Shown piece after piece: positions 7,201-64,000 of a stretch of 64,000 nt of DNA (positions are counted from its first letter, which is position 1; the number at the start of each line of letters is the position of its first letter). Under the pieces are notes generated by a model. That model made no database searches. It was not told the DNA's origin and worked only from the letters and a program-made list of their open reading frames with translations. Source of the stretch: Flavobacteriales bacterium (lineage in GTDB: Bacteria; Bacteroidota; Bacteroidia; Flavobacteriales_F; PHOS-HE28); assembly GCA_041747675.1 (NCBI GenBank), contig JBGTES010000090.1:19582-83581 (forward strand), read 5' to 3'. The position numbers were made by a program, and so were the translations under genes.

Positions 7201-7241
7201 TACTTGGACCCCATGTGCGCCACAGACCCGACCTTCGCGGT

Positions 7242-7664
7242 ATGTTGATCCGTGTAGAACACATCGGCATCGCCGTGAAGGACCTGGAGGCCGCCGAGGC
7301 GATCTACACCAAGCTTCTGGGCGAAGGGCCATACAAACGCGAAGCGGTGCAAAGCGAAGGGGTGATCACCTCCTTTTTCAAGACCGGCCCCAACAAGATC
7401 GAATTGCTGGAAAGCACGGATGCGCAAGGACCCATTGCCAGGGCGATCGAAAAACGTGGGGAGGGCATCCACCACATCGCCTTTGAGGTGGCCGATATCC
7501 GCGCCGAGATGGCACGCTTGAAAGCCGAAGGATTCACACTGCTGAGCGAAGAGCCCAAACCCGGCGCCGACAACAAGATGGTGTGCTTCATACATCCCAA
7601 GGGCACAGGTGGCGTATTGGTGGAACTGTGTCAGGAACGCGAGCAGGTGGGGTCTGGGGCATAG
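7242..7664 (+). CDS. mce: methylmalonyl-CoA epimerase (VOC/glyoxalase family)
   Basis: VEHIGIAVKDLEAAEAIYTKLLG...HHIAFEVADI...GGVLVELCQ is the typical epimerase pattern at about 140 aa. Confidence 0.75.
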   Translation: MLIRVEHIGIAVKDLEAAEAIYTKLLGEGPYKREAVQSEGVITSFFKTGPNKIELLESTDAQGPIARAIEKRGEGIHHIAFEVADIRAEMARLKAEGFTLLSEEPKPGADNKMVCFIHPKGTGGVLVELCQEREQVGSGA

Positions 7665-7688
7665 GCGATCGGTGCCTCCTGCATCCCA

Positions 7689-8321: not shown

Positions 8322-8326
8322 GGGCC

Positions 8327-9796
8327 TCAGGGCAGTTTCAGAAAATGCACTCGGCCCTGCGCATCCACCGCACGGAGCATCAGCAGTCCACTGTGATGTG
8401 GACCCCAGAGCATGTGGGGTCGCAGGGTCGCGCGTTCCAGCAGGCGCCCTGTCGCATCGAGCACTTCCAGCAGCACGGGCCTATCCCCGGTCCATTCCAC
8501 CTGACGTTCGCGCGGCAAGAGGGTGCCGGCGGATGCCTCAACGTTGTATCCGGTGCTGAGGCATCCGGGATAGGCGTGTGTGCCCAGTGCTGCGTAGACC
8601 TCCTCCTCCACGCGGTACCAGGCGCTGTTGATGCCGAGCGCGTAATTGTTGCCGGGGGTATATCCGTTGGTGAGGAACACCAGTCCGAGACCGGTGACGG
8701 GGTCCAGGTATAGGTCGCTGATAAGTCCGTAGGCTTCGCCTGCATGACCCAGCATGGGGATGCCGGGCAGTATCACATCGCCACCCATCGTGGCCGTGAT
8801 GCGGTGCACACCCAGTCCCCATGAGCGGAACAGGCCGAAGTAGTTGTTGCCGTTGCCTTGGCCCCAGGTCCATTCGTTGGCGGCCATGGTGGCCCAGGTG
8901 GCGGGCTGGAGTATGGTGATACCATCCACCGTGCCTTCGCCGTGCATGAGCTTCAGCACCTGTGCCAGTTCCAGCGCGCTGCATCGCAGGCCACCCTGGG
9001 GTGCGAAATACAGGCCGTTGCTTCCAATGGTGTAACCGCTCAGGTCGGGTGCCGGTGGCATCACCCCACCGAAATTGTCGGCCTGGGCGATGCTGTTGCG
9101 GTAGAGTACGGCCAGATCGCCGATCTCATCCAGGTCCTGGATGTTGAACGAACCCGCGATACCCATGGGAAGCAGGATGTGCTCACGCATGTACTGGTCG
9201 AAGCGCTGGCCGCTGTTCGCCTCGATCAGGGTGCCGATGATACCGTAGTTCGCGTTACTGTACATGAAATAGGTGCCGGGCGCTTCGGTGCGCCACATGT
9301 TACTTGTGTACCATGTGCCGCCGGGCATTACGAGTTGTTGGATCGGTGGTGGGGGCGTACCGGCATAGGTGGCGCTGAGGAAATTCGCGTAACCTGTTCC
9401 GTCCTGCAGACTGCTGCGGTGGCTCAGCAGCATGCGATAGGTGACCGGTGTATCGGGATAGGTCGGGTTTCGGAAACTGAAGCCCAGAGCGATGCTTACG
9501 TCATCGTCCAGCCCGAAAGCGCCCTGTTCATGCAACCTCATCAGGCCCATTGCTGTGACAAGCTTGCTGATGGAGGCGATGCGGTAGCGTGTATCATCGT
9601 TCACCGGGGTGAGCGGGATGAGGTTGCGGTAGCCGTAGTGGACCACATGGCTCACTTGATCGCCGCAGGTGGCCACCACGCTCATGCCCACCAATCCGCG
9701 TTGTGTGGCGATGGCCGTGAGATCCTGATGAAGGGTTTGGGCCGGCGCGTATGCAGATACCAACAAGGTGGCCCACAGGAAGCATGTTCGGATCAT
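8327..9796 (-). CDS. serine hydrolase (beta-lactamase/transpeptidase fold) with T9SS C-terminal domain
   Basis: Signal peptide MIRTCFLWATLLVSAYAPAQT. S-x-x-K motif ASISKLVTAMG. C-terminal Por-type tail ...LLEVLDATGRLLERATLRPHMLW...VHFLKLP. Confidence 0.75.
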   Translation of the reverse strand: MIRTCFLWATLLVSAYAPAQTLHQDLTAIATQRGLVGMSVVATCGDQVSHVVHYGYRNLIPLTPVNDDTRYRIASISKLVTAMGLMRLHEQGAFGLDDDVSIALGFSFRNPTYPDTPVTYRMLLSHRSSLQDGTGYANFLSATYAGTPPPPIQQLVMPGGTWYTSNMWRTEAPGTYFMYSNANYGIIGTLIEANSGQRFDQYMREHILLPMGIAGSFNIQDLDEIGDLAVLYRNSIAQADNFGGVMPPAPDLSGYTIGSNGLYFAPQGGLRCSALELAQVLKLMHGEGTVDGITILQPATWATMAANEWTWGQGNGNNYFGLFRSWGLGVHRITATMGGDVILPGIPMLGHAGEAYGLISDLYLDPVTGLGLVFLTNGYTPGNNYALGINSAWYRVEEEVYAALGTHAYPGCLSTGYNVEASAGTLLPRERQVEWTGDRPVLLEVLDATGRLLERATLRPHMLWGPHHSGLLMLRAVDAQGRVHFLKLP

Positions 9797-9928
9797 GCTG
9801 CCAAATTACGCCGTGGTGTGGGGCACACGCTGTCACGTGTTGCCCATCGCCACCAACCATCCGCCAAACCACCATGGCCACCACGAGCGCAGCGAACGCC
9901 GGTGCTCCAGTACCTTCGCCGCGCGACC

Positions 9929-10001
9929 GGGCCCATAGCTCAGCGGTCAGAGCAGGGGACTCATAATCCCTTGGTCGCAGGTTCAAATCCTGCTGGGCCC
10001 A
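9929..10001 (+). tRNA. tRNA-Met (anticodon CAT), elongator-like (G1:C72 paired); tRNA-Ile2 (lysidine) cannot be excluded
   Basis: Hand-folded cloverleaf. Acceptor GGGCCCA/TGGGCCC, D-arm GCTC...GAGC, anticodon stem GGGGA/TCCCT with loop CTCATAA, T-arm GCAGG-TTCAAAT-CCTGC, discriminator A. 73 nt. Confidence 0.85.
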
Positions 10002-10061
10002 CCCACCACGCCATGTCCCCGCCCGCGGGGATCCGGCCTGCAACGTCGAGGAGCAACGAAA

Positions 10062-18536: not shown

Positions 18537-20474
18537 GTGCAACGCACCCTTCTCCTGGCCGGTCCGCTGCTTCTGGTGTTCGCCTGTGGCGGCAATGGCG
18601 GCGATCGTGGGGTCACGCTGCGCGGTGAGGAGGACCCGCCACGCTTCAAGGCCGAGATGGATTCCGCACAGGAATACATGCGTGCCGGCAAGGTGGATAA
18701 AGCCGAAGCGCTGGGCCGGTCCATCTATGAACGCACGCTTGCCGAGCCTACCTTGTTGAGCCAGCGGATCACCATGTTGTCCTTGCTGGGGCACATCATG
18801 CAGCGCCGCATGATGACCGACTCCGCCCATGCCCTGTTCCAGGAGGGCCTCCATTTGGCGCGGTCCATCGCTGACACGGCCGCCATCGGCACCATGTGGC
18901 TGAATGTGGGTGTGGTGCTGGAGGAGAAGGGTGATTATGAAGGAGCGTTGGAAGCCCAGTTGAACGCTTTGCGCTGGAAGGAACTGGTGGGTGAGGATCG
19001 GGTGTTGGCACGTGTGCTGCACAATCTGAGCGTGCTCCATTGGCGGCAGGACAGCATCGAGCAGGCCATGCGCTTGATCGAACGCAGCATCGCCATCAAG
19101 CGCATCCACGGCATGCGCGATCTGCCCCTGAGCCTTAACGGCATGGGGCTCCTGCTGATGGAACTCGGCAGGCTTGATACGGCCCTTGTTGTCCTGAAGG
19201 AGAGCCTCGCCCTCGAGGACAGCATCAACCTTGGCGCCGAACGCCAGATCCAGGTGTTGAACATCGGACTGGTCTTTGAACGAATGGGCCAGCTGGACAG
19301 TGCTGCTCTCTACTACACGGAGGGTCACCAGATAGCGGAGGCGAACAACGACCCCTACGTGATGATCCGCTCGCTCTTCGGCTCAGGCGATGTGCTGCGC
19401 GCGAAGGGCCGATATGCGGAAGCGTTGTCATTGCTGGACAGCAGCCTTGCGCTGGCCGGCCGGGTCGGTTCCCTGGAGGACATGAAGGAAGCGCACATCT
19501 CCCTGGTGGTGCTGCACGAACACCTGGGCCACGCGCAAGCTGCCCTGGACCATTTCCGGATGTATCACCACCTGAGTGATTCACTCATGAACGCGGAGAC
19601 CGGTGCCGCCATGGAAGAGTTGCGCCTGCGCTACGACACCGAAAAGAAGGACCGCGAGAACCAGGACCTGCGTGCCACGGCGGAACTTGCCGCACTGCGC
19701 GCCGCACGCGATCGGTGGATCGCTGTGGGCATGGGCCTGGTGGCGATCAGCCTGACCGTGTTCGGTTGGGCCATGGCCCAACGCAACAAGCAGCGCGCGC
19801 GGCAACGCGAGGCGGAACTGGAGCAACAAGCACTTCGGCTACAGATGGATCCGCACTTCCTGTTCAATGCGCTCAATACCATTCCGGGCTTGTATGCCAG
19901 CGGCGATCCGGCAGTGGCCAACGACCATGTGGGCCACCTCTCCAAATTCCTGCGCATGGTATTGGAGACCAGCCGGCGACGCACCATTCCGCTGGCCCAG
20001 GAGATCGAACTGGTGGAACACTACCTGCGCATATGCGCCAACCGCCGGCCGGACAAGTTCACGTGGGAAGTTCAGGTGATGCCCTACGTCAGGCCCGAAC
20101 GACTGGCGGTGCCACCCATGCTCATCCAACCCGTGGTGGAGAACGCCTTGGAGCACGGCTTCCACGGCCTGGCGAAGGGGCATCTGAGGGTTTTGGTGGA
20201 CCTGGCGGGAAGTGTGCTACACGTGGAGGTGGCGGACAATGGCATCGGTCACAAGGCAGCGGAGCAGCGCCCTTCGCGGCGCAACGGCCGCTCCATGGGC
20301 ATCGACCTCGTGCGGCAGCGGATCGTGCTTTTCGATGAACTGGCTAACTTCAGCGATGCCGTGCAGGTGCATGATGGATCTTCCGGGGACCCATCGCGTC
20401 CGGGCACAACGGTCACCCTGCGTTTCAGGCCACAACATTTGACCGAACATGATGAGGCTCGCGATCGTGGATGA
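18537..20474 (+). CDS. sensor histidine kinase, TPR-repeat sensor with LytS/YehU-type kinase core
   Basis: GTG start. Lipobox LLVFACGG, about 330 aa of TPR-like repeats, one TM segment (WIAVGMGLVAISLTVFGWAMA), His_kinase motif DPHFLFNALNTI, and an HATPase region. Confidence 0.8.
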   Translation: MQRTLLLAGPLLLVFACGGNGGDRGVTLRGEEDPPRFKAEMDSAQEYMRAGKVDKAEALGRSIYERTLAEPTLLSQRITMLSLLGHIMQRRMMTDSAHALFQEGLHLARSIADTAAIGTMWLNVGVVLEEKGDYEGALEAQLNALRWKELVGEDRVLARVLHNLSVLHWRQDSIEQAMRLIERSIAIKRIHGMRDLPLSLNGMGLLLMELGRLDTALVVLKESLALEDSINLGAERQIQVLNIGLVFERMGQLDSAALYYTEGHQIAEANNDPYVMIRSLFGSGDVLRAKGRYAEALSLLDSSLALAGRVGSLEDMKEAHISLVVLHEHLGHAQAALDHFRMYHHLSDSLMNAETGAAMEELRLRYDTEKKDRENQDLRATAELAALRAARDRWIAVGMGLVAISLTVFGWAMAQRNKQRARQREAELEQQALRLQMDPHFLFNALNTIPGLYASGDPAVANDHVGHLSKFLRMVLETSRRRTIPLAQEIELVEHYLRICANRRPDKFTWEVQVMPYVRPERLAVPPMLIQPVVENALEHGFHGLAKGHLRVLVDLAGSVLHVEVADNGIGHKAAEQRPSRRNGRSMGIDLVRQRIVLFDELANFSDAVQVHDGSSGDPSRPGTTVTLRFRPQHLTEHDEARDRG

Positions 20475-21201
20475 TGAGGCACCGGCCCGCGCCAACCTGC
20501 GCGCCGCCCTGGCTGGTATTCCGCTGGAGGTGGAGGTGATCGGCGAGGCCCAAAGCGTTGCAGAGGCCATCGTGCTCATCAACAACGCCAGGCCCGATGT
20601 GGTGCTGCTCGACATCTGGCTGGATGATGGCACCGGCTTCGATGTGCTCGACCAGGTGGATCATGACATGACCCGCGTGGTCTTCGTCACCGCCTTCGAT
20701 CACCATGCGGTGAATGCCTTCAAGCACGGCGCCCTGCATTACCTGCTGAAACCCGTGGTGCGCGCCGATCTGCAGGAGGCCCTGGAACGTGCCGCGGCCG
20801 CACCGGTGTACACCACCGAACATGTGGACCATGCCCGCCGCGCCCTGCTGGACCGCATCATCATCCCCACGGCCGAAGGCTTCCACGTGCTTACGCCGCA
20901 TGAGATAGAGCGTTGCGAGAGCGATGGCAACTACACGCGGTTCCACCTGCTGAACGGCGATCGCGTGATGGCATCACGCACCTTGAAGGAGTACGAGAAC
21001 CAATTGGTGCCCTTCGGATTTATGCGGGTCCATCTGTCACACCTGGTGAACATGGCGCAGGTGCGGATGTACCTGCACCGCGATGGCGGGACCCTGGTGC
21101 TAGCGAACGGACAGGAGGTACCGGTGAGCCATCGCCGACGGAACGAAGTGGTGGAAGCTCTTGGCCGGAAAGCCGCCAAAGGTGGGCCTTCCTCCCTATG
21201 A
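20449..21201 (+). CDS. LytTR-family response regulator
   Basis: REC domain (MMRLAIVDDE...VLLDIWLDDGTGFDVL) plus LytTR domain (IIIPTAEGFHVLTPHEIERCESDGNYTRFHL...). Overlaps the HK gene by 26 nt. Confidence 0.85.
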   Translation: MMRLAIVDDEAPARANLRAALAGIPLEVEVIGEAQSVAEAIVLINNARPDVVLLDIWLDDGTGFDVLDQVDHDMTRVVFVTAFDHHAVNAFKHGALHYLLKPVVRADLQEALERAAAAPVYTTEHVDHARRALLDRIIIPTAEGFHVLTPHEIERCESDGNYTRFHLLNGDRVMASRTLKEYENQLVPFGFMRVHLSHLVNMAQVRMYLHRDGGTLVLANGQEVPVSHRRRNEVVEALGRKAAKGGPSSL

Positions 21202-28720: not shown

Positions 28721-30172
<1,452 letters not shown>

Positions 30173-30332
30173 GGATCGGATGATCGGATGATCGGATGAT
30201 CAGACAATGGGAATGCCTGCCTCCGACCCGGGATCAGCCCGCAAAGGAACGAAGGCGACGTGATGTGTAGGAGGGTGATAGAGTTGCGATCGCTCCTGTG
30301 GGACCGCTGGAAGCACAATACTTCGCGCTCAG

Positions 30333-39169: not shown

Positions 39170-39262
39170 ATGGAGGTTAGGAAGGGGAAGAAGGGAAAGG
39201 AGGTAAGGGAGGTAAGGGAGGTGAAGAAGGTGAAGAAGGTGAAGGAGGTGATGAAGGAGAAG
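39170..39262 (+). repeat. GA-rich degenerate tandem repeat (GGTAAGGGA / GGTGAAGAA units), left flank of the inserted gene
   Basis: ggaaggggaagaagggaaaggaggtaagggaggtaagggaggtgaagaaggtgaagaaggtgaaggaggtgatgaaggagaagg. Confidence 0.6.
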
Positions 39263-39378
39263 GCTTGACGATAGAGAATAAACAATTCATCAAAGCCATG
39301 AACACAACGAACGACCCGCTTCACAGGGACTGGAACATCGAGGGCTATTTCGAACCAGGTGGATCCGTCTCCGTGGTA

Positions 39379-39765: not shown

Positions 39766-39940
39766 TCGAGGAGGAGAAGGAAGAGAAGATGGTGAAGGAG
39801 GAGAAGGAGGTAAGGGAGGAGAAGAAGGTGAAGGCCATCACCGATCACCATGCACTCTAACACACGGCGCGCGACCAATTAACACCAGACCCCCTCGCTT
39901 CCCTTACCCCCCTCACCTTCCTTACCTCCCTCACTGATCC
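39766..39940 (+). repeat. right flank: second GA-rich repeat copy followed by its CT-rich inverted complement (hairpin-capable)
   Basis: ggtgaaggaggagaaggaggtaagggaggagaagaaggtgaagg ... cgcttcccttacccccctcaccttccttacctccctcac is imperfectly complementary to the GA-rich units on both sides of the gene. Confidence 0.6.
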
Positions 39941-39972
39941 CAATACCACCCAGACCGTTCTCCTCTCACACC

Positions 39973-52267: not shown

Positions 52268-53635
52268 TCAACCGGCCTTTGGCAGCCGAACGGTGAAGCG
52301 GGCCCCGGCCCCGGGTGCCGACAACAGCACGATGCTTCCGCCGTGCAGCTCGGCGATGCGGCGCGCCAGTGACAGGCCGATGCCGTGGCCCTTGGCGCCA
52401 CCGGTGTTGGTGGCCCGGTAGAAGGGTTCGAAGACACGTTCCTGTTCGGCAGGCCCGATACCTGCTCCATTGTTGGAGATCGCGATGAGTACCTCCACAC
52501 CGTTTCTGTCCAACTTCACTCGCGCGATGTGGTCCGGTGAGTATTTGCAGGCATTCTCGATCAGATTCACCAACATGGAACGCAACAGGGTTTCATTGCC
52601 GCTCACCAGTAGATCGGCCTCCTCATCAAGTTGCCCGATGCTCACTTCCACCGTGTTGTGCTTTTCCGCCTTCAGTGTCTCTTGCCTGGCCTGCCATAGC
52701 ACCTCGTCCATGCGCACAGGTGTGAAGGTGGCGGCCGTTGTGCTGTTCTCCGCCTGGGCCAGCAACAGCAAGCGGTCGGCCAGTCGGTTCAGCGCCTGCA
52801 TGTCCTCCAACACGGAGCGCAAGGCAGGCTGGTATTCTTCCATCTCCCGGGGCTTCAACAGAAGCACTTCCAATTGCCCGCTGATAGTGGTGAGGGGTGT
52901 ACGCATCTCGTGCGATGCGTTGGCTATGAAGTTCTTCTGCACTTGGAAAGCCTCCTCCAGCCTGGCGAGCAACTCGTTGAAGGTGTAAGCGACTTCGGCG
53001 ATCTCGTCCTTGGTATCGCCGGTATGAATGCGCATGGCCAGGTCCTGTGCGTTGAAGCGGCGCAGTTCTGCGACCAGGCGTTGCAGGGGCACCAGAGCAC
53101 GTTGGGCGTAGAGCCGCCCGGCCAGAAAGGTGATCAGCAATCCGGCTAGGAAGTTGGCCACCAGTACCTGGGCGAGGTTGCGCAGTTTGCTACGGCCAAA
53201 GATGTCGTTGCCGCTCACCACCACCACGAAGCGGTCGTACCGGTCGTTGAAGGGGAAGGCCAGACGTTCGCGTTGGCCGATGGTGGACCACTGCGTGCCT
53301 TCCAAGCGCACCAGGTCCAGCAATTCCGGGGGGGCCGGAGGCAGGCCCTCGTCACCCATACGGAACAGCAATTCTCCATTGTGGTCGAAGATGCGGATGG
53401 CCTCCTCGGGCAGGCGCACAGGGTTGTCACGCTCAATGCGCCGCAGCAGTTCCTCGGTCACTTCCTCCACCTGGATCAACAGGGTGGCCGCGTTGATGCC
53501 GCGATCGCGCAAGCGGCCTTCAAACTCCTGCATGCGGTATTTGGCCGAGAGCAGGTAGATGGAAGCCGACATTCCGCCCAGTACCAAGGATGCCAGTATC
53601 ATGAACTGTAGCGTGAGACGCCCCCGGATGGTCAT
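52268..53635 (-). CDS. two-component sensor histidine kinase (HisKA + HATPase_c)
   Basis: Two TM segments flank a periplasmic loop. H-box NASHEMRTPLTTISGQLEVLL, then N/G boxes (...NLIENACKYSP...GIGLSLARRIAELHGGSI). The start at ATG 53635 overlaps the RR stop. Confidence 0.8.
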   Translation of the reverse strand: MTIRGRLTLQFMILASLVLGGMSASIYLLSAKYRMQEFEGRLRDRGINAATLLIQVEEVTEELLRRIERDNPVRLPEEAIRIFDHNGELLFRMGDEGLPPAPPELLDLVRLEGTQWSTIGQRERLAFPFNDRYDRFVVVVSGNDIFGRSKLRNLAQVLVANFLAGLLITFLAGRLYAQRALVPLQRLVAELRRFNAQDLAMRIHTGDTKDEIAEVAYTFNELLARLEEAFQVQKNFIANASHEMRTPLTTISGQLEVLLLKPREMEEYQPALRSVLEDMQALNRLADRLLLLAQAENSTTAATFTPVRMDEVLWQARQETLKAEKHNTVEVSIGQLDEEADLLVSGNETLLRSMLVNLIENACKYSPDHIARVKLDRNGVEVLIAISNNGAGIGPAEQERVFEPFYRATNTGGAKGHGIGLSLARRIAELHGGSIVLLSAPGAGARFTVRLPKAG

Positions 53636-54312
53636 GTACGCGCGGTGAGAATGTAGCCCAGCCCCACACGGGTGTGGATGAGCTTGGGCTCGAAGTCGCG
53701 ATCCACTTTCTTGCGCAGCAGTTTGACGTAGGCCTCCACCACGTTGGTGCCGGTATCGAAATCGATGTCCCATACCTTCTCACTGATCTGGGCACGGGAA
53801 AGCACACGATCGGCATTGCGCATGAGGTACTCCAGCAGCGCGAACTCCTTTGCGGTGAGTGTTATGCGCAGTCCTTCGCGCACGGCCTCCTTGCGCGCAA
53901 GGTCCAGCACCAGGCCGTGGTATTCCAGTTGATCGGCCTGCACATGCACCGCCGATCCACGGCGCAACAGGGAGCGCACCCGCGCAAGAAGCTCCTTGAA
54001 CTCAAAGGGCTTCACCAGATAGTCATCAGCCCCGGCATCCAGGCCGCCCACCTTGTCATCAGTGGTACCCAATGCGGTGAGGATCAGGATGGGCATGGTG
54101 CCACCGCCTGCACGGATGGCCTTGCAGGTCTCCAGCCCATTCATGCCGGGCATCACTACATCCATCACCACAAGGTCCACAGGCTCCTGCAGGGCGAAGC
54201 GCTTGCCCATGGGGCCATCATAGGCGCTGAGCACCTCGTAGCCACTTTCTTCAAGTCCCTGTTTCAGGAACGCGGCCACCTTGGGTTCATCCTCCACCAC
54301 CAGAATGCGCAT
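53632..54312 (-). CDS. OmpR/PhoB-family winged-helix response regulator
   Basis: MRILVVEDEPKVAAFLKQGLEESGYEV...DLVVMDVVMPGMNGLE... plus a C-terminal wHTH (LTAKEFALLEYLMRN...). Confidence 0.85.
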   Translation of the reverse strand: MRILVVEDEPKVAAFLKQGLEESGYEVLSAYDGPMGKRFALQEPVDLVVMDVVMPGMNGLETCKAIRAGGGTMPILILTALGTTDDKVGGLDAGADDYLVKPFEFKELLARVRSLLRRGSAVHVQADQLEYHGLVLDLARKEAVREGLRITLTAKEFALLEYLMRNADRVLSRAQISEKVWDIDFDTGTNVVEAYVKLLRKKVDRDFEPKLIHTRVGLGYILTART

Positions 54313-54597: not shown

Positions 54598-55164
54598 CCT
54601 CCCAATTCGTCCGTGCGCCTGCCTGCCGGAGGCAGGCCGGATGCGAGGCTCACCGGCCCCGCTGGCTGAGCGGAGGCAACGCCCTCCCGGGCTTGCGTAT
54701 GGTGAGCCGCGCGAAGACCTTCTGCTCGGAGGGCTCCTTCCTGATTCGCTGGCGGACGTATACGATCATGACTTCTGGAACGAAGCTCGCCTTCCTGTAT
54801 GTCCGGGACGTTCTGGGAAAGTGAAGTGTTTTCGAATGGGTGCACGAGATATCCACAGCGTGAACAATCTCGGTGGAGCGCGGCATGGCGCCTGGTGCGA
54901 TCAGTACACGAGTAACAACCAGCCGATAAAGAGCAAGGCCAGCGCAATGGCCAGGACCCGGTACAACGTGGGTATGCGTGCAGGTTTCTTACTTCCCATG
55001 GGCGCAGAAGGTAAGGCTACGATGCAAGAGGCCTTGTGTTCAACAATGTGCACAGCATGGCATTCGATCAATGCGGCATGGCATCGGACCATCCGCGCCG
55101 ATCTTTGTGCCGAGCGTTGAATATCCCTCAACCATTCAACCACCCAACCCTCAACCTCTCCACC

Positions 55165-56151
55165 ATGCGCTACCGCCGCCTCGGCACTTCAGGCCTCCAG
55201 GTCTCCGAACTCTCACTGGGAAGCTGGCTCACCTTCGGGAAACAGATCACCGATGCCACCGCGGAGAAATTGATGAAGAGCGCTTACGATGGTGGCATCA
55301 ACTTCTTCGACAATGCCGAGATCTATGCACGCGGTGAGAGCGAGCGGGTGATGGGCAAGATCCTGAAGAAGACCAAATGGCCACGTGACACCTGGATCGT
55401 GAGCAGCAAGGCATACTTCGGCGCGGGTGGTAAACTGCCTACGCAGACCGGGCTGCACCGCAAGCATTTGGTGGAAGCCTGCAACGCCGCACTTCAACGC
55501 TTGCAGGTGGAATACCTGGACCTCTTTTTCTGCCACCGGCCGGACAAGCACACGCCGATCGAAGAGACGGTGTGGACAATGCACCAGTTGATCATGAGTG
55601 GCAAGGTGCTCTATTGGGGCACCAGCGAATGGAGCGCACCGGAGATCATGGAGGCGCACATGGTCGCAAGGCAGCATCACCTGATCGGACCCGTGATGGA
55701 GCAGCCCCAGTACAACATGTTCCACCGTAACAAGGTGGAGGTGGAGTACGGGCAGATATACAAGACCGTTGGGCTGGGCACCACCATCTGGAGTCCGCTG
55801 GCCAGTGGCATCCTCACCGGCAAACACCGCGACATCAAAGCCGCCAAGGGCACGCGCCTCACCATGGCAGGCCTCGATTGGCTGCGCGAACGCGAACTCA
55901 CGCCCGCACGCCTGAAGACCGTGGAGAAGCTGAACAAGATCGCCGATGGTCTTGGCCTCTCGCTGCCGGTGATGGCCCTGGCCTGGTGCCTGAAGAACCC
56001 GCATGTGAGCACGGTGATCCTCGGCGCCAGCAAGGAGGCACAACTGAAGGAGAATCTTAAGGCTTCCGAAGCGCAGGACCTGTTGACACCTGCGGTGATG
56101 GAAAAGATCGAGAAGGTGTTGGGGAACGCTCCAGTGCGGCCGCAGTGGTGA
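55165..56151 (+). CDS. aldo/keto reductase (Kv-beta/YajO-like subfamily)
   Basis: MRYRRLGTSGLQVSELSLGSW...YDGGINFFDNAEIYARGESE...YLDLFFCHRPD... is the AKR catalytic-tetrad context. The track ORF begins upstream at 55036. Confidence 0.8.
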   Translation: MRYRRLGTSGLQVSELSLGSWLTFGKQITDATAEKLMKSAYDGGINFFDNAEIYARGESERVMGKILKKTKWPRDTWIVSSKAYFGAGGKLPTQTGLHRKHLVEACNAALQRLQVEYLDLFFCHRPDKHTPIEETVWTMHQLIMSGKVLYWGTSEWSAPEIMEAHMVARQHHLIGPVMEQPQYNMFHRNKVEVEYGQIYKTVGLGTTIWSPLASGILTGKHRDIKAAKGTRLTMAGLDWLRERELTPARLKTVEKLNKIADGLGLSLPVMALAWCLKNPHVSTVILGASKEAQLKENLKASEAQDLLTPAVMEKIEKVLGNAPVRPQW

Positions 56152-56303
56152 CAGGCACCCCGCCGGTCCCAACACTGCGATGCACGGAGTCGCCTTTGAC
56201 AGGCACCACGGTCGTTCACCCGATCGAACCGGTCATTCACCCGCCTCCGACTTCCATTTGGCATTAGGCGGGTATAGCTTGTGGTCCATTAAAGCTGACC
56301 GAC

Positions 56304-58016
56304 ATGCTTACACGCGTGATCCTGCCAACGGCCTTTGCGGCTCTTTTCGCGAGTGCCGGTTCCGCCCAGACATTGGATTGGGCGAATGCCATCGGAGGGG
56401 ATCCCTTCCAAACCCAGTTCGCTAATGCCACAGCGGTGGACAGCGAAGGCGCGGTGATCACCATCGGCAGATACGTGGGTAGTGCGGATCTCGATCCCGG
56501 CCCGGGCGAAGCCTTCGTTACGAGTAATGGAGACACCGATATCTTCATCCAGAAAGTGGATGCTTTCGGACAGTTCCTCTGGGGCAGGTCCATCGGCGGC
56601 ACCAGCCAGGACTGGGGCCAGGGGATCACCATCGACAGCGGCAACAATGTGATCGTGACCGGCCGGGTGGCGGGAACGGTGGATCTCGATCCGGGTCCGG
56701 GCACCGATCTCTGGACCACGCCCAATACGGTCTTCGCCGTGTTCGTTGTAAAGCTCAGTGCAGAAGGAGGATACCAATGGGGGCGGATCTTCGGTGGGAT
56801 CAACAACGACGCCGGATATGATGTGGCGGTGGATCACGAGGACAACATCATCACTGTGGGGGTCATCGGCGGGCCGGCCGACCTGGATCCCGGACCGGAT
56901 GTGGCACAGGCCGGAGGCAACGGCATGCAGGACATCTTCGTGCAGAAGATGGACGCACAGGGCAACTTCCTTTGGGGGGCTGCCATGGGCGGGCCTGCCC
57001 ATGATCTCGCATACGGGGTGGCCATCGACGCAGAGGGGCACATCTTCGTCACCGGTGAATTCCGCGGCACGGCCGACTTCGACCCCGGCCCTGGCACGGC
57101 ATCGCGCACCAGTGGCGGGTTCGAGGACATCTTCGTGCTGAAGCTCAGTGCCGATGGAGCCCTGATCTGGGTCAACACCTTCGGATCATCAGGTCTTGAA
57201 CATTCCAACGCGATCGCCGTGGGACCCGACGGCGGCCCCGTATTCACCGGCCGCATCACCAGTGTCACCGACTTCGACCCGGGACCCGATGTACACGAAG
57301 TGCAGGGCAGCCTGTTCGAGGACGGATTCATCTGCAAGCTCGATGGTGATGGAGCGCTGGAGTGGGCCTTCCTGCTGGCGTCGTTCATGGTGGAGGGCCA
57401 CGCCATCGCGGTGGATGTGGAGAACAACGTATATGCCGCCGGGACCTTCTTCAGCGTACAGGGTATTCCACTGGACCTTGATCCTGGAACGGGATCGGCG
57501 CCGGTGTCCAGCCAGGGTGGCGGCGATGTGTGGGTGGCCAGTTATGGATCCGGAGGGGTGTATCGCTGGGGATTCAGCATCGGCAGCTTCCAGACCGACA
57601 TTCCCCATGGGATCGCCGTCGGACCTACGGGCAAGGTGGTCGTGGTGGGCAGCTTCCTGCAGGACCTGGAAGTAGATCCCGGGCCGGGAAGTGTCACCCT
57701 GCCGGTCACCTGGGGTCCGGATGCGTTCATCGCGCAGTATCGGCAGGACTTTACCACCGGCATTCTCGCGGAACATCTCGCAAATGCCCCCGGGCTGTTC
57801 CCCAATCCGGCCAGCAGTATGGTGCGTATCCACTCGACCGGAAATGAGGCCGTGGAGCGCATGGAAGTTTCGGATGCGCAGGGCAGGGTGATGATGCGCT
57901 GGCACGGATCGCCACCACCGACATTCTCAGTGGACCAGTTGTCCCCCGGGATCCATTTCGTTCGTCTGCTGATCGGTGGCCAATGGCATGTGCTGCCGCT
58001 GGTGGTGATGCGATGA
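56304..58016 (+). CDS. SBBP/beta-propeller-repeat protein with T9SS C-terminal domain
   Basis: About 9 repeats containing DLDPGPG / FDPGPG. Signal peptide. C-terminal tail LFPNPASSMVRIHSTGNE...GIHFVRLLIGGQ. Confidence 0.7.
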   Translation: MLTRVILPTAFAALFASAGSAQTLDWANAIGGDPFQTQFANATAVDSEGAVITIGRYVGSADLDPGPGEAFVTSNGDTDIFIQKVDAFGQFLWGRSIGGTSQDWGQGITIDSGNNVIVTGRVAGTVDLDPGPGTDLWTTPNTVFAVFVVKLSAEGGYQWGRIFGGINNDAGYDVAVDHEDNIITVGVIGGPADLDPGPDVAQAGGNGMQDIFVQKMDAQGNFLWGAAMGGPAHDLAYGVAIDAEGHIFVTGEFRGTADFDPGPGTASRTSGGFEDIFVLKLSADGALIWVNTFGSSGLEHSNAIAVGPDGGPVFTGRITSVTDFDPGPDVHEVQGSLFEDGFICKLDGDGALEWAFLLASFMVEGHAIAVDVENNVYAAGTFFSVQGIPLDLDPGTGSAPVSSQGGGDVWVASYGSGGVYRWGFSIGSFQTDIPHGIAVGPTGKVVVVGSFLQDLEVDPGPGSVTLPVTWGPDAFIAQYRQDFTTGILAEHLANAPGLFPNPASSMVRIHSTGNEAVERMEVSDAQGRVMMRWHGSPPPTFSVDQLSPGIHFVRLLIGGQWHVLPLVVMR

Positions 58017-58050
58017 ACAGATCAAGCCGTTCCATCACGATCTTGTGTCC

Positions 58051-59859
58051 ATGTTTCGCGCGCTGTTCCTGTCGACCCTCACATGCGCCGCGATCGGTGC
58101 AGCGGGACAGACGGACAGTCTCATACGGGTCTTGAACGACCTGCCCGATGATAGTAACAAGGTCGCTGCCATGGGCCAGGCCGCGCGCGAGTTGATATTG
58201 CGTGATACGGATCGGTCCATATTGATCGGCGGTACGGGACTGGCACTGGCGCAACACCTCGGACTGCGATATCATCAAGCCACGGCGCACAACCTGCTGG
58301 GCGTCGGGCACAATTTGCAGGGTGATCGAAATGCCGCGCTTGAGCACTTTCTGGGTGCGCTGGAGATCTCGGAAAGCCTCGGGAAGAAAGCCTTGACGGC
58401 CAACGTACGATCAAACCTCGCCCGGCTATATCTGGATGATCGACGACTGGACCTTGCCGAAGCCGAGTACCGTCGTGCCATGCGGGAGTTCCGTGACCTG
58501 GATGAGCCCATCTGGGAGGCGGGCATGGTGCAAGGCCTCGCCGATGTGTACCGTCAGATGGACCGGCGGGACAGCGCCCAGATCCTATTCGGTAAAGCGG
58601 CGGACATGCTCGTTCAGCTACAAAGGCCCCTGCATGCGGCCCTTGCCCGGCACGACCAGGCCGTGCATACGGATGGCCCCGGCGAGGACTCGCTTTCGCT
58701 GGCACGCCATCGCCAGGCATGGGCATTATTGCAGGAGGCGGAGAACGGACAAAGCGCTTTCACGCGAATGACCATCCTGCGCGGATTGGGCGGCGCGCTG
58801 TTGCGCAATGGCTTGGATGACGAAGCGGAAGGGATCCTGCGCGAGGCTTTGGCGCTGGCCACCAGTGCTGGCCAACGGCAAGGCCGGCATGACCTGCACC
58901 TGCTGCTGGCGGGCGTACTGGAACGGCGGGGCGGGGCGGACAGCGCGTTGCACCACCTGCGCCAGTATGTGGCGTTGCACGACAGCATGGTCACAGCCGA
59001 ACGTGCACGTGCCATCATCGAGTTGCAGGAGCGCTACGAAAGTGAGCGCAAGGACATCGCGTTGGCCCACCAACGGATGCTGCTGGAGCGACGTACCCGT
59101 TCCATGTACCTGTTGACGGGTGGCATCATCCTGATGGCGATCTCCCTGCTGCTGCTATGGCGTGCATGGCGGGCGAAGCAACGCACTGCGGCCGCGCTGC
59201 GCAAAGCCCTGGACGAGCGGCAGCTGCTGTTGCGCGAGATCCATCACCGGGTGAAGAACAACCTGCAGATGGTGGGTGGCCTGTTGCGCATGCAGGGCCG
59301 CCATATCCGCGACCCCATGGCGCGCGAGGCGGTGCGCGACAGCCAGGACCGCGTGCGCAGCATGGCCCTGATCCACCAGGACCTCTACCTCGAGGACGAT
59401 CCACGCGGCATCCAGATGGTGCCCTACGTGGAGAAGCTCGTCCATGGACTCTTGAAGAGTCACGCAGTGGGGACGGAACGCATCCAGCTGGAACTGACCG
59501 TGGATCCGGTGCGCCTGGATGTGGATGTGGCCATGCCGATCGGATTGATCCTCAATGAACTCATCGTCAATGCCCTGAAGCATGCGTTCCCGCAAGGACG
59601 AACGGGCCGCTTGCGGGTGATGCTCAAGCATCAGGCGGAGGAGCTGGTGCTGGAGGTGTCCGACAACGGTGTGGGCCATGCGGCCGGCACAGGCATGGAG
59701 AGCGGTACACCGGGTTTCGGGCTGGGCATGTTGCGCACTTTCGCCGACAAACTGGGCGCACGGTATGAGATGAACGGACATCCCGGCACCACCGTCCGGA
59801 TGTTCATCCGCGATCACAAGGCTCCTATCGAACCGGCGCTGTCAGTTTCCCAACGATGA
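58051..59859 (+). CDS. TPR-repeat sensor histidine kinase (HisKA_2-type H-box + HATPase_c)
   Basis: Signal peptide, TPR-like repeats, a TM segment (MYLLTGGIILMAISLLLLW), H-box LLLREIHHRVKNNLQMVGGLL, and ATPase LNELIVNALKHAF...DNGVG. The track ORF starts at GTG 58045. Confidence 0.8.
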   Translation: MFRALFLSTLTCAAIGAAGQTDSLIRVLNDLPDDSNKVAAMGQAARELILRDTDRSILIGGTGLALAQHLGLRYHQATAHNLLGVGHNLQGDRNAALEHFLGALEISESLGKKALTANVRSNLARLYLDDRRLDLAEAEYRRAMREFRDLDEPIWEAGMVQGLADVYRQMDRRDSAQILFGKAADMLVQLQRPLHAALARHDQAVHTDGPGEDSLSLARHRQAWALLQEAENGQSAFTRMTILRGLGGALLRNGLDDEAEGILREALALATSAGQRQGRHDLHLLLAGVLERRGGADSALHHLRQYVALHDSMVTAERARAIIELQERYESERKDIALAHQRMLLERRTRSMYLLTGGIILMAISLLLLWRAWRAKQRTAAALRKALDERQLLLREIHHRVKNNLQMVGGLLRMQGRHIRDPMAREAVRDSQDRVRSMALIHQDLYLEDDPRGIQMVPYVEKLVHGLLKSHAVGTERIQLELTVDPVRLDVDVAMPIGLILNELIVNALKHAFPQGRTGRLRVMLKHQAEELVLEVSDNGVGHAAGTGMESGTPGFGLGMLRTFADKLGARYEMNGHPGTTVRMFIRDHKAPIEPALSVSQR

Positions 59860-60551
59860 GCACCCTGAGCGTTTTGATCGTGGAGGATGAACCCCTGATC
59901 GCCGGGGACCTGGCGGAGATGCTCGCCGAGCAGGGCCACCGCGTATGCGGCATCGCACACCGGGCCCATGCGGCCATGGAACTGATCAAGCGCGAACGTC
60001 CCGACCTCGTGCTGCTGGATATCCGCTTGAACGACGGGGTCGATGGCATCGCCGTGGCACGCGAACTGGATCGGGAGCACATCGCTTTCCTGTACGTCAC
60101 CTCGCATACCGATGAAGCCACCATGGAACAGGTGGTGCGCACCGGCCCACAGGGTTTCATCCGCAAGCCCTTCGATGAGGATGACCTGCGCACACAGATC
60201 GCCGTGGTGCTGGCCAGGCTGGAGAAACGGCAGGTGCCTGAACATATCCTGGTGCGCGACAGGGGCCACACGGTGCGCGTACCCATCCGCGACATCATCT
60301 ACGCCGAAGCGGATGACAACTACACCACCATCCATACTTCCGATCGCAAGTATGTGCTGGTAAGCTCATTGAGCGCGGTGGAGGAGAAGCTTGGTGGCAG
60401 GCATCTGCTCCGGGTGCATCGCAAGTACGCGGTGGATATGCAACGCGTCACGCGCATGGACGCGAACGTGCTTATGCTGGGACCTGTGCGCATCCCCGTG
60501 GGGCGCACGCATCTGGCGGAAGTACAGCGCCGGTTCATGCATGTCCGATAG
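59856..60551 (+). CDS. LytTR-family response regulator
   Basis: REC domain (LIVEDEPLIAGDL...DLVLLDIRLNDGVDGI) plus LytTR domain (VRVPIRDIIYAEADDNYTTIHTSDRKYV...). ATGA overlap with the HK stop. Confidence 0.85.
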   Translation: MSTLSVLIVEDEPLIAGDLAEMLAEQGHRVCGIAHRAHAAMELIKRERPDLVLLDIRLNDGVDGIAVARELDREHIAFLYVTSHTDEATMEQVVRTGPQGFIRKPFDEDDLRTQIAVVLARLEKRQVPEHILVRDRGHTVRVPIRDIIYAEADDNYTTIHTSDRKYVLVSSLSAVEEKLGGRHLLRVHRKYAVDMQRVTRMDANVLMLGPVRIPVGRTHLAEVQRRFMHVR

Positions 60552-60653
60552 GGATCGGGACGGTCACCCGTATGATCCCGCCATCCACCCAGATCCGGAT
60601 AGGATGCACGGACCAGAGGTGATACCTTGTGGTCAATGAATGCCTGAGGGATC

Positions 60654-61643
60654 ATGCGCATCAAGATCACCCGCTTTCTGAGCACACATGCTACCATGTG
60701 CCTCATCGCATGGGCACCGTTGCTATCAGGAACGATCGCGGGCCAGAACCTGCTACCCAACCCGGGTTTCGAGAAGGTGCTGCAATGTCCGGACTTCCAA
60801 AGCCAGCTGGATCGGACGGCCCATTGGACCTCGCCCAGTACGCAGGGCACCCCGGACTTCTACCATGCCTGCGCGACCAACCCATGGTTCTCCACACCGG
60901 AGAACATCGTCGGTTTCCAGGAGCCGGTGGAAGGTGTGGCCTATGCCGGCATTTTCCTGTTGATCGCCCAATCCGTCATGGCCGAATGGCGGGAGTTCAT
61001 ACAGACACCATTGCTCGAGCCCCTTGTGCAGGACCGCTGCTATCGCTTCCGCATGCACGCCAACCTCACGGAGTATTCGCTACTGAGCTCCAACTCCCTG
61101 GGCGTGCGCTTCAACGTGGGGCCATACGCACTTCCGAATGCTTTTGTGCCCGGTGATCCGCCACACCTTGCACTACCTCCGGCGGTATTCCTCGACCATG
61201 AGAACTGGACAGGGCTCGAAGGCGAGTATGTGGCACAGGGTGGGGAGGACCACCTGATGATAGGCAACTACGCACCGGATGCCGGCACGTTGACCCAGCC
61301 GGTCTCCAGCACGCTCCCCAATGCGGGGCCCTTCGTCTATGTGCTCATCGATCTGGTGAGCCTGGAGCCCTGTGAGATCGTCACCGATGCCACGCAGCTT
61401 GACGGTTCCAACACCCCGGGGTATGATCTGCTTGGGAGCACCATCCAACTGGCCGATGCGCGCTGGGCAAATGCAACCTGCCGCTTGTTCGACACCCTTG
61501 GCCGGACGGTCTTCGAAAGCACCCGGATCACGGGAACGATCCATCTCCCTTCGCATCTGGCGGGGATCTATGTTTTCGAATTGGTGGCGTCATCGGGTGA
61601 GCGGCATCGTCGAAAGGTGCTGCTGCATGGGGTCCATCATTGA
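60654..61643 (+). CDS. hypothetical secreted protein with probable T9SS C-terminal domain
   Basis: N-terminal hydrophobic signal. C-terminus RLFDTLGRTVFES...AGIYVFELVASSG is Por-tail-like. Confidence 0.55.
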   Translation: MRIKITRFLSTHATMCLIAWAPLLSGTIAGQNLLPNPGFEKVLQCPDFQSQLDRTAHWTSPSTQGTPDFYHACATNPWFSTPENIVGFQEPVEGVAYAGIFLLIAQSVMAEWREFIQTPLLEPLVQDRCYRFRMHANLTEYSLLSSNSLGVRFNVGPYALPNAFVPGDPPHLALPPAVFLDHENWTGLEGEYVAQGGEDHLMIGNYAPDAGTLTQPVSSTLPNAGPFVYVLIDLVSLEPCEIVTDATQLDGSNTPGYDLLGSTIQLADARWANATCRLFDTLGRTVFESTRITGTIHLPSHLAGIYVFELVASSGERHRRKVLLHGVHH

Positions 61644-61801
61644 GCGCGACTAGTGGTGCACGCAACTTCGCGGAGGAAGGGCTCTTGACCATAAGCGTCA
61701 CTGGATCACGGATGAAGGTGGATGGTGCATTGCGGACACGCTTTTGTGGTGTTGCGCCGATCGGACTTGCCGCAGCGGATCGCATCGCCGAACTTTCCGC
61801 C

Positions 61802-63586
61802 ATGCGCGCCATCGCCTGGATCATCCTGTGTTTCATTCCCATCCATGCAGGTGCACAGTCCGACAGCCTCCTTCGTGTACTCGGCACCCTGCCCAATGAC
61901 ACCTCGCGTCTGCCCGTGCTCACCGAACTGCTCCGTGCCACGGTCTTCAACAAACCGGACAGTGCGTTGGTCTTCGCTGCCGCATATCGTGATATCGCCC
62001 AGCGCAGCGGGATCGCGCTGGAGATCGGCAAGGGGCACAACTACACCGGCATGTGCTACAGCTTCAAAAGTGAGCACGATCGGGCATTGGAACATTACCT
62101 CGCTGCCTTGCCACACTTCGAGAAAGGTGGCGACCCATGGTATGTGGGCATGGCGCACAACAACATCGGGAGCGTGCATGAGAAGATGCGCCGCATGGGC
62201 AAGGCCCGGCAGGAGTACGGCATCGCACTGGGCGTCTTCAAGGCGATCCCCGACACGGTGTGGATGGCCAACGTCTCCAACAACCTGGGCAACCTGCACT
62301 TCGCGGATGCCCGCTGGGACAGTGCCGCCGTCTACTACACCCAGGCCGACCGTGTGCTCACCAGTGCAGGTATGGACAGCTTCACCGGGCAGACGCGCAT
62401 GAACCTGGCCAATGCGCTGTACGAGCAGGGTGAGCATGCCCGCGCACTGGAGGTGATGCGCACCGCACTGGCCGTGATGCCCGCAGGAGAGGATGACCGC
62501 GCCCGCTCCAGCGTACTCACCGGTCTGGGTCGCTTGCATGGGTTGGTGGGGCGCGAGGACAGTGCCCTGCACTTTCTTCACGCGGGCCTCACATTGGCCG
62601 AGCAGGTCGGTGCGCGCGAGGATGCGCTCAACGCCCACCTCTACCTCTTCGAGCTGCATGAACAGCGGGGCCGTCCCGAGCAGGCCCTGTTCCACCACAA
62701 GCGCATGGCGGCCCTGCGCGACAGCATCTTCGACGAGGAGCGCAGCGCACAGATCACCGAGATGCAGGAGAAGTACGAGAGTGGGCTGAAGGACGCGCGG
62801 CTTGCGGAGAATGAGGCGCAGTTGCAACGTCGATCGATGGCGGTGAAAGCCTTCGCCGGTGGAGCGCTGCTGTTGCTGGTGGCAGGGCTCTTCGCCTTCC
62901 GTGCCTATCGTGTGAAGAAGCGCAGCAGCGAGCAACTCATGTCGAAGAATGCGATCATCGACGCCCAGTTGAAAGAGAAGGAACTGCTGGTGCGTGAGAT
63001 CCATCACCGCGTGAAGAACAACCTGCAGACCGTGAGCAGCCTGCTCAGCATCCAGGGGCGCGGCATCGCCGATGAAGCGGCCAAAGAGGCTGTGAACGAC
63101 AGCCGCCTGCGCGTGAAGAGCATGGCCCTGATCCACCAGGACCTGTACCGCGAAGGCGATCTCACCGGTGTACGCATGAAGGACTACGTGGAGAAGCTGG
63201 TGAACAGCCTGATCACCAGCTACGCCGCCGGCGATCGCGTTTCCGCTGCCTTCGAAGTGGATGACATCGCCCTGGATGTGGATACCGCCGTGCCCATCGG
63301 GCTGGTGCTGAATGAACTCGCTACCAACGCGCTGAAGTACGCATGGCCCGATGGTCGTACCGGTACGCTCGTGATCCGATTGAAGCACCATGCCGATGCG
63401 CTCGAGCTCTCCGTGACCGATGATGGCGTGGGCAAGCAGGACACCACCGGGGACGAACGTTCCTCCGGCTTCGGGATGAACATGGTGCGCACCTTCGCCA
63501 ACAAGCTTAAAGCGGAGCACAGCGTGGAGCATGTCAATGGGACCACCGTGCGTATGCTCATCCGGAATTTCAAACTTGCGCGCTGA
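61802..63586 (+). CDS. TPR-repeat sensor histidine kinase (HisKA_2-type); paralog of 58051-59859
   Basis: N-terminus MRAIAWIILCFIPIHAGAQSDSLLRVLGTLPND parallels ...AGQTDSLIRVLNDLPDD in the first copy. H-box LLVREIHHRVKNNLQTVSSLL and ATPase LNELATNALKYAW. The track ORF begins at TTG 61640. Confidence 0.8.
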   Translation: MRAIAWIILCFIPIHAGAQSDSLLRVLGTLPNDTSRLPVLTELLRATVFNKPDSALVFAAAYRDIAQRSGIALEIGKGHNYTGMCYSFKSEHDRALEHYLAALPHFEKGGDPWYVGMAHNNIGSVHEKMRRMGKARQEYGIALGVFKAIPDTVWMANVSNNLGNLHFADARWDSAAVYYTQADRVLTSAGMDSFTGQTRMNLANALYEQGEHARALEVMRTALAVMPAGEDDRARSSVLTGLGRLHGLVGREDSALHFLHAGLTLAEQVGAREDALNAHLYLFELHEQRGRPEQALFHHKRMAALRDSIFDEERSAQITEMQEKYESGLKDARLAENEAQLQRRSMAVKAFAGGALLLLVAGLFAFRAYRVKKRSSEQLMSKNAIIDAQLKEKELLVREIHHRVKNNLQTVSSLLSIQGRGIADEAAKEAVNDSRLRVKSMALIHQDLYREGDLTGVRMKDYVEKLVNSLITSYAAGDRVSAAFEVDDIALDVDTAVPIGLVLNELATNALKYAWPDGRTGTLVIRLKHHADALELSVTDDGVGKQDTTGDERSSGFGMNMVRTFANKLKAEHSVEHVNGTTVRMLIRNFKLAR

Positions 63587-64000
63587 TGAGCACCGTACGC
63601 ATCCTGATCGTGGAGGACGATCCCTTGATCGCTGAGGACCTCACCGGGCACCTGGAGGCGCTGGGCTACGAGGTAGTGGCCGCATGCGACAACGCGCTGG
63701 ACGCCATGGCGGAGATCGCTGAGCGCAAGCCGGACCTGCTGCTATTGGACATCAACCTCGGCGACGGCGCGGATGGCATCCAACTCGCTGAAAAGGTGAA
63801 AGCGAAGCAGGCACTGCCTTTCATCTTCGTCACCAGCCATAGCGACCCCGGCACACTCGCGCGGGTAAAGCCACTGCGTCCTGCAGGCTTCATCATCAAG
63901 CCCTTCGACGAGAACGACCTGCGCACCCAGATCGAACTGGCCCTGGCGCGCTACGCCAACGATGTGGAGGCCACCACAGCGCCCAGCGAAGAGCAGCGCG
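63586..64000 (+). CDS. response regulator (REC domain), 3'-truncated at the window end; paralog of 59856-60551
   Basis: MSTVRILIVEDDPLIAEDL...DLLLLDINLGDGADGI...FIIKPFDENDLRTQIELALAR. The ATG overlaps the HK stop by 1 nt. Confidence 0.8.
   Translation, partial: MSTVRILIVEDDPLIAEDLTGHLEALGYEVVAACDNALDAMAEIAERKPDLLLLDINLGDGADGIQLAEKVKAKQALPFIFVTSHSDPGTLARVKPLRPAGFIIKPFDENDLRTQIELALARYANDVEATTAPSEEQR

Follow-up and report, generated by a model that had tools for sequence, protein, structure and literature searches.

A TPR-sensor kinase/LytTR regulator module with conserved operators beside predicted type IX secretion cargo genes in Flavobacteriales

Results

Organisation of the locus

The 64,000-nt stretch of Flavobacteriales DNA analysed here (the window; contig JBGTES010000090.1, G+C about 60%) holds, at positions 56213-61643, four consecutive genes encoding a predicted type IX secretion system (T9SS) cargo protein (cargo 1), a TPR-domain sensor kinase (K1), a response regulator with REC and LytTR domains (RR1) and a small secreted protein (cargo 2), each cargo gene being preceded by a direct-repeat operator and a promoter box. 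In our reading these genes form one regulatory module whose operators would be activated by RR1, and an anciently related kinase-regulator module (K2-RR2) follows it; we give this reading a probability of roughly 0.65. A preliminary description of the region had proposed instead a three-gene unit (T9SS cargo gene, TPR-sensor HisKA_2 kinase, LytTR/REC regulator) present in two tandem copies, and the open reading frames (ORFs) on which it was built were all confirmed by the ORF map (Table 1).

Table 1 Features of the K1 module and its flanks (window positions).
Feature	Position	Strand	Description
Aldo-keto reductase gene	55165..56151	+	ORF; conserved left flank of K1-type and K2-type modules in relatives
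Operator 1	56213..56243	+	Direct repeats CGTTCACCCG (56213-56222) and CATTCACCCG (56234-56243); spacer 11 bp
-7-like promoter box TAGCTTGT	56275..56282	+	TAnnTTGY type; 31 nt past operator 1, 21 nt before ATG
Cargo 1, SBBP beta-propeller protein	56304..58016	+	Pfam SBBP; signal peptide; T9SS type A C-terminal domain
K1 sensor kinase	58051..59859	+	Signal peptide, TPR, one transmembrane helix, HisKA_2 and HATPase
RR1 response regulator	59856..60551	+	REC and LytTR; start overlaps K1 stop
Operator 2	60561..60591	+	Direct repeats CGGTCACCCG (60561-60570) and CATCCACCCA (60582-60591); spacer 11 bp
-7-like promoter box TACCTTGT	60623..60630	+	31 nt past operator 2, 23 nt before ATG
Cargo 2, small secreted protein	60654..61643	+	Signal peptide; CBM4/16/22-like jelly roll; divergent CTD-like beta-sandwich
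K2 sensor kinase	61802..63586	+	TPR/HisKA_2; paralogue of K1; member of a widely conserved orthologue clade
RR2 regulator	63586..64000	+	REC only within the window (gene runs past the window end); start overlaps K2 stop

The boundaries of the unit were defined by comparison with related loci (L numbers); the nearest database relatives of K1 and K2 are found in metagenome-assembled genomes of uncultured Flavobacteriales. The conserved unit comprises the SBBP beta-propeller gene, K1, RR1 and the CBM-like cargo 2, and recurs in L001, L107, L109 and L110, all of them uncultured Flavobacteriales in which no K2 adjoins. The order in L001 (GCA_041745875.1) is aldo-keto reductase, a T9SS protein, SBBP protein, K1, regulator, an orthologue of cargo 2 (77%) and a further gene, followed on the other strand by fructosamine kinase and polyphosphate kinase genes, with no K2 there. 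L107 carries an SBBP-kinase-regulator-cargo-2-like series, flanked by the aldo-keto reductase gene on one side and by the fructosamine kinase/polyphosphate kinase genes on the other; L109 and L110 have the same four-gene order, their cargo 2 homologues being 43-44% identical; and L005 has four tandem SBBP genes, then the kinase and the regulator, without cargo 2. An Aldo_ket_red gene adjoins the modules in L001, L003, L005 and L107.

K2 orthologues directly follow the aldo-keto reductase gene in L003, L089 and L092, with their partners downstream. The same position is taken in L002, the locus of the K2 relative with 91% amino acid identity: the gene upstream of K2 ends there with a C-terminus matching the window aldo-keto reductase (L002:1-850 compared with window 56152-61775), the 5.6-kb K1 module is absent, and the two sequences become similar again about 30 nt upstream of the K2 start. 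As the K1 module is missing there as a whole, its genes were gained or lost together; its flanks contained no repeats of 9 nt or more. Judged from these comparisons, the window contains a complete K1 module between the reductase gene and the K2 module, not two three-gene copies.

Operators and promoter boxes

Both operators consist of two 10-nt direct repeats, CGTTCACCCG-like, in a 21-bp register with an 11-bp spacer: CGTTCACCCG-N11-CATTCACCCG for cargo 1 and CGGTCACCCG-N11-CATCCACCCA for cargo 2. LytTR operators in general have two 9-11-nt repeats and an 11-13-nt spacer (PMC4847170), a geometry into which both fit. The distance from operator to promoter box is exactly 31 nt at both cargo genes, with the ATG 21-23 nt further. 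Boxes of the TAnnTTGY form have been described as a variant of the -7 element of flavobacteria, located at -12 to -5 (PMC9723704), and the repeats are therefore estimated to lie at roughly -75 to -45. An 18-nt motif located 5' of both cargo start codons (CTTGTGGTCNATNAANGC) was considered as a regulator site and rejected: it corresponds to the -7 box together with leader sequence, since boxes of the TAnnTTG type also stand before other window genes and match the described type. A -7-like element (TTTTGTGG) was also found about 55 nt upstream of K2; there was no direct-repeat operator upstream of this gene.

The pattern TYCACCC-N14-TYCACCC, allowing at most one mismatch, occurs in the 64-kb window only at 56215-56242 and 60563-60590, weaker matches being coding-region noise (2.4 expected). 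The operator is conserved across about 20 related loci, with the overall form CGTTCACCCR-N11-CGTTCACCCG, which bears out the suggestion in the preliminary description that LytTR-type direct repeats would be shared upstream of the cargo genes. Most of the longer K2-orthologue loci (drawn from metagenomes by an alignment restricted to the TPR domain) contain perfect CGTTCACCC[AG]-N11-CGTTCACCCG(ATC) dyads on the same strand as the kinase gene: the first directly after the regulator stop codon, the others before later genes, and most of them ending 55-63 nt before a start codon. In the K1 modules, the operator also precedes the SBBP genes of L001, L005 and L107, its first repeat being degenerate, and is followed after 30-31 nt by a TAGCTT box, as at cargo 1; the repeats of operator 2 are identical in L001 (after the regulator of the K1 orthologue) and L106. 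Cargo 2 begins 15-50 nt after the regulator gene in L107 and L109, without an operator of its own, and therefore belongs there to the same operon.

Adjacency to T9SS genes is, by itself, weak evidence for a regulatory link: a type A C-terminal domain (CTD) scores above the cut-off in at least 7 of the about 46 window genes (a few more look similar), and cargo neighbours are therefore often expected by chance. The same caution applies to the statement that the window holds three TPR-sensor/LytTR systems, all beside T9SS cargo. The adjacency is there, and TPR and LytTR domains do occur together in the system at window 18537-21201. Its kinase, however, has a His_kinase (PF06580) core, which is of a different family from HisKA_2, and no direct-repeat operator was detected beside this system or its neighbouring T9SS genes. 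This density of cargo genes, and a system standing beside them without repeats, would fit an absence of any functional link, the repeats having arisen by chance or having another role, such as binding a global regulator or forming a structural DNA element. We consider this scarcely credible, in view of the distribution of the dyad: it specifies 12 bases, and occurs 24 times in perfect form (20 unique) in the 0.40 Mb of K1/K2 loci, always on the kinase strand, in a 21-bp register and at a similar distance from the start codon, often abutting a regulator stop codon, against no perfect copy in 1.32 Mb of distant HisKA_2 kinase loci. These control loci contained relatives of at most 32% identity, obtained from a contig scan with the full-length kinase alignment (generic HisKA_2 motifs). 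Moreover, there was no match to Rfam families in window 55000-64000, and no mobile-element repeats flank the module.

Origin of the two modules

K2 has many orthologues (46-91% identity); K1 has a handful (47-67%), and its next-best matches are K2 orthologues (about 40%). In a neighbour-joining tree of 33 kinases (100 bootstraps), K2 grouped with its orthologues from other genomes in a clade supported by 98/100 replicates, K1 grouped elsewhere, with P0002, P0004, P0005 and P0006 (58/100), and K1 and K2 were never sisters (0/100). K1 and K2 therefore separated before the K2 clade diversified, and on this tree they belong to different, old subfamilies.

These data bear on the proposal that a three-gene unit was duplicated in tandem, with cargo 2 as the partner of K2/RR2. 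The gene order can be read in this way, K1 and K2, as well as RR1 and RR2, are clear paralogues, and, depending on the genome, either a K1-type or a K2-type module follows the aldo-keto reductase gene, as would be expected from a very old duplication at this locus. Nevertheless, the proposal is very unlikely: homologues of cargo 2 follow K1-type regulators where no K2 adjoins, the targets of K2 orthologues lie downstream and not upstream, and cargo 1 shows no relationship to cargo 2 (best E 2.2). In a recent tandem duplication the copies would be closest relatives and the segments homologous throughout, and neither is the case here. Consequently, the tree (no sister relationship), the non-homologous cargoes and the absence of the K1 module from L002 argue for gain or loss of a whole module rather than for recent tandem duplication, and do not support the idea of a local duplication. 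The synteny, together with the start of operator 2 only 9 nt after the RR1 stop codon, likewise assigns cargo 2 to K1/RR1 and not to K2.

Sensor kinases and response regulators

K1 and K2 align end to end, with 38% identity over 595 aa (E 2e-119), and have in common the N-terminal motif DSL[IL]RVL..LP.D and the H-box EIHHRVKNNLQ, in agreement with their earlier designation as clear paralogues sharing both motifs. HisKA_2 (PF07568) scores 91.8 bits in K1 and 97 bits in K2 (cut-off 22.3), and TPR, HATPase_c and HATPase_c_2 are also above the Pfam cut-offs in both. Hydropathy indicates an N-terminus resembling a signal peptide and a single strong membrane helix around residue 350 (in K1, the TPR domain occupies about residues 20-345 and the transmembrane helix residues 351-369); the TPR domain is therefore predicted to be periplasmic and the kinase core cytoplasmic. 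The closest solved structures to the kinase core are those of the EL346 blue-light kinase (4R39/4R3A; PDB matches, E 4e-12), and the NCBIfam PhyK model gave a partial match. The FimS equivalog model (NF053520, cut-off 600) reached 65.1 bits in K2, as a partial match over the TPR region, and 37.6 bits in K1.

K1 starts 34 nt after the end of cargo 1 and is probably co-transcribed with it. The reported stop/start overlaps between kinase and regulator genes were found in both pairs (ATGA at 59856-59859 and TGATG at 63584-63588).

RR1 contains Response_reg (81 bits) and LytTR (66.9 bits) domains, both above the Pfam cut-off, with the acidic pocket, D55 and K104 conserved. Its receiver is most similar to those of PhyR and PdtaR, the type that partners HisKA_2 kinases. 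The RR2 fragment is 50% identical to RR1 over the REC domain; thus, of the pairwise alignments proposed at the outset, those of the kinases (over their full length) and of the regulators gave the expected relatedness, and that of the cargo genes did not. A LytTR/REC regulator had been assigned to both modules. Both domains are present in RR1; in RR2 only the receiver is visible, and a LytTR domain beyond the window end is inferred from the 246-aa L002 regulator, which is 91% identical to RR2 over REC and has REC and LytTR domains according to Pfam. The LytTR domain of this regulator (L002:2627-3367), used as a stand-in for RR2, diverges from those of the canonical K2-type regulators; RR1 is 46% identical to the latter through the LytTR domain.

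Cargo proteins

The T9SS type A sorting domain was identified in cargo 1 by TIGR04183 (27.1 bits, cut-off 23); PF18962 alone gave 21 bits (cut-off 27). The protein has a hydrophobic N-terminus (MLTRVILPTAFAALFASAGSAQ) and shares 57% identity over 480 aa with the SBBP protein encoded upstream of the K1 orthologue in L001. The SBBP proteins of the K1 modules in relatives (L001:7774-9966; the four L005 genes in 1185-10001; L107:3294-5483) have a conserved tail, ...NDRD..L..IGG..PT.TR.EQLP, and there was no T9SS sorting domain in the L005 protein tested. A type A CTD in the window protein, compared with the EQLP tail in the relatives, indicates that the C-terminal domain was swapped.

Cargo 2 had no Pfam match, and its TIGR04183 score (16.3 bits) is below the same cut-off; no TIGR04183 match was obtained in its L001 orthologue. 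Because of this low score, its assignment relies on two other features: the C-terminal 75 residues match the type A CTDs (PF18962) of homologues in register, the usual YPNP start being absent; and the AlphaFold model (mean pLDDT 88) shows a jelly roll (residues ~31-240) joined by a disordered linker to a beta-sandwich that stands apart at the C-terminus (~255-325). In distant homologues of cargo 2 the same N-terminal domain is fused to a type A CTD, a CHU_C (PF13585) domain or an OmpA domain. The notion that a T9SS-tailed secreted protein precedes each kinase is therefore secure for cargo 1, with a sub-threshold tail at cargo 2. The type IX secretion machinery is likely encoded in the same genome, given the many CTD proteins in the window.

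The K2 regulon in related genomes

The conserved K2 regulon comprises: the regulator; an operator; genes for a 443-aa secreted protein, a 613-aa T9SS protein and a 105-aa LytTR protein; a second operator; and a gene for a T9SS protein of about 1650 aa. Additional operator-preceded T9SS genes were found in some of the K2 genomes, and TIGR04183 was above the cut-off in all 8 of the large downstream proteins tested. The stand-alone, LytTR-only protein of about 105 aa (L003:18941-19258; L087:15811-16128; L089:12239-12556; L093:2134-2457) is encoded immediately upstream of the operator that precedes the giant T9SS gene, and might compete or co-regulate at the same repeats. L002 differs in its operator sequence: at L002:4230-4330, before the gene for a 1672-aa T9SS beta-helix protein, there is GGATCCACTC-N11-GGATCCACTG, with GGATCCACT repeats instead of the CGTTCACCC dyad, which may be a re-specified operator.

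Together, the loci of both types support the existence of cargo genes with dedicated TPR-kinase/LytTR regulators, more generally than first proposed. The core idea of a recurrent cargo-plus-dedicated-regulator unit is upheld by the shared operators; the cargo-kinase-regulator order, repeated twice, gives way to the arrangement defined by synteny.

Other features of the window

A classical HAMP/HisKA kinase and OmpR-type regulator pair is encoded upstream of the aldo-keto reductase (window 52268-54312, minus strand), and this pair, with the reductase, is a conserved synteny anchor in L001, L089 and L092. Other features were: a tRNA-Met gene (anticodon CAT) at 9929-10003; a purine-rich run of GGAGGT/GAAGGT-type repeats at ~39175-39265, before the ORF at 39265; at ~39880-39972, before the ORF at 39973, a run rich in pyrimidines whose motifs (cttaccccc/ccttacc) are complementary to those of the purine-rich run; and three tandem copies of CATCCGAT at ~30173-30200, directly 5' of the start codon of the minus-strand gene 28721-30172.

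Discussion

The following mechanism is proposed for the K1 module. The TPR domain of K1 would sense a periplasmic ligand, possibly a peptide or a protein, FimS of Porphyromonas gingivalis serving as the analogy (PMC11053733), and K1 would phosphorylate RR1. Two RR1 LytTR domains, as a dimer, would bind the paired 10-bp repeats and activate, rather than repress, the TAnnTTGY promoters. The first promoter would drive a cargo 1-K1-RR1 operon, as suggested by the short and overlapping junctions between its genes, and the system is probably under positive autoregulation, since that promoter would drive K1 and RR1 themselves; the second promoter would drive cargo 2. The K2-RR2 module, starting at 61802, would have its own promoter and no operator, and might control T9SS cargo genes located downstream, beyond the window, by analogy with its orthologues.

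Several points weigh against this reading. Besides the sub-threshold tail of cargo 2, all the related loci were chosen for the presence of the kinase, and the specificity of the dyad is sampled by the 64-kb window and the locus flanks only. No intrinsic terminators were predicted above background in the region, and the operon boundaries therefore rest on gap sizes only; sigma-70-type promoters were not predicted there. The canonical dyad is absent after the regulator of L002, the closest K2 relative. Finally, the cargo 1 half-sites (CGTTCACCCG and CATTCACCCG) equal the K2-locus consensus CGTTCACCC[AG], and RR2 or another LytTR protein could bind them.

This last point is the basis of an alternative in which RR2 or another LytTR protein binds the repeats of cargo 1, perhaps also those of cargo 2, with K2 controlling the K1 module or with competition between regulators. 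The similarity between RR1 and the K2-type regulators through the LytTR domain is in its favour, and the stand-alone LytTR protein of the K2 regulons could compete for the same sites. However, the SBBP genes of L001, L005 and L107 keep the operator without an adjacent K2, and the divergent LytTR domain of the L002 regulator, in a locus that uses GGATCCACT repeats, hints at separated specificities; we regard this alternative as unlikely, although it accounts for the identity of the half-sites. Activation of both operators by RR1 remains the reading that we prefer.

A joint reading, in which the SBBP protein binds the K1 TPR domain as its ligand or senses together with it, and in which the RR2 LytTR domain and its operator have been re-specified in the window/L002 lineage, is doubtful; the SBBP gene is directly upstream of the kinase in at least 5 genomes. 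If it were true, the module would track how far its own cargo has been exported and respond by feedback, for which PorA and PorY offer a parallel, and the replacement of CGTTCACCC by GGATCCACT would be a case in nature of paralogous LytTR systems within one genome becoming insulated from each other.

On its predicted domains, the system is an uncharacterised variant of the LytTR two-component systems. Its kinases have the same catalytic core family (PF07568) as the HisKA_2/HWE kinases EL346, PhyK and PdtaS, and its receiver is PhyR/PdtaR-like. In those systems the sensor domains are cytoplasmic, and the output domains are, for example, of the anti-anti-sigma or antitermination type; here there is, by contrast, a periplasmic TPR sensor and a LytTR DNA-binding output. 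The regulator has the REC and LytTR architecture of AgrCA (Staphylococcus aureus), YpdAB/BtsSR (Escherichia coli) and ComDE/BlpRH/PlnBCD (Firmicutes), and the system resembles LytTR systems in its paired repeats just upstream of the promoter (PMC4847170), its adjacent targets and the likely autoregulation of the kinase/regulator operon. It differs from the Agr, YpdAB and Com systems in the kinase (HisKA_2 with a periplasmic TPR domain, not HPK10 (AgrC-like) or LytS/5TMR-type), the PhyR/PdtaR-type receiver, the clade-specific half-site CGTTCACCC, the Bacteroidota -7-type boxes and the T9SS cargo regulon.

Two systems of P. gingivalis are also among its closest known counterparts. FimS/FimR has a TPR-motif periplasmic sensor and activates an adjacent cell-surface protein gene cluster (PMC11053733). 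K1 and K2 resemble FimS in being Bacteroidota kinases with a periplasmic TPR sensor; they differ in the HisKA_2 core, the LytTR output and the presence of one transmembrane helix plus a signal peptide instead of two transmembrane helices, and with at most 65 bits against a cut-off of 600 they are not FimS orthologues. PorXY is reported to regulate genes for T9SS component proteins, and PorA, a CTD-bearing protein, to act as a ligand of its sensor (PMC12152298). The likeness lies in a two-component system tied to T9SS biology, with PorA as a precedent for a co-encoded cargo protein feeding back on its kinase; the difference lies in the predicted targets, which are here individual cargo genes beside the regulator, and in the TPR/HisKA_2 kinase with a REC/LytTR regulator.

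In full-text literature searches on LytTR, TPR kinases, HisKA_2 and type IX secretion we found no characterised TPR/HisKA_2/LytTR member, and nothing on LytTR control of T9SS cargo or on the regulation of individual T9SS cargo genes. Pairs of TPR-sensor kinase and LytTR regulator are abundant in environmental Bacteroidota, yet unstudied. For one clade of uncultured Flavobacteriales, the analysis supplies a conserved operator, a promoter architecture and a predicted T9SS cargo regulon (beta-propeller, CBM-like and giant beta-helix proteins); it turns an annotation pattern into a testable regulatory model, and provides a sequence handle for a genome-wide search for the regulon.

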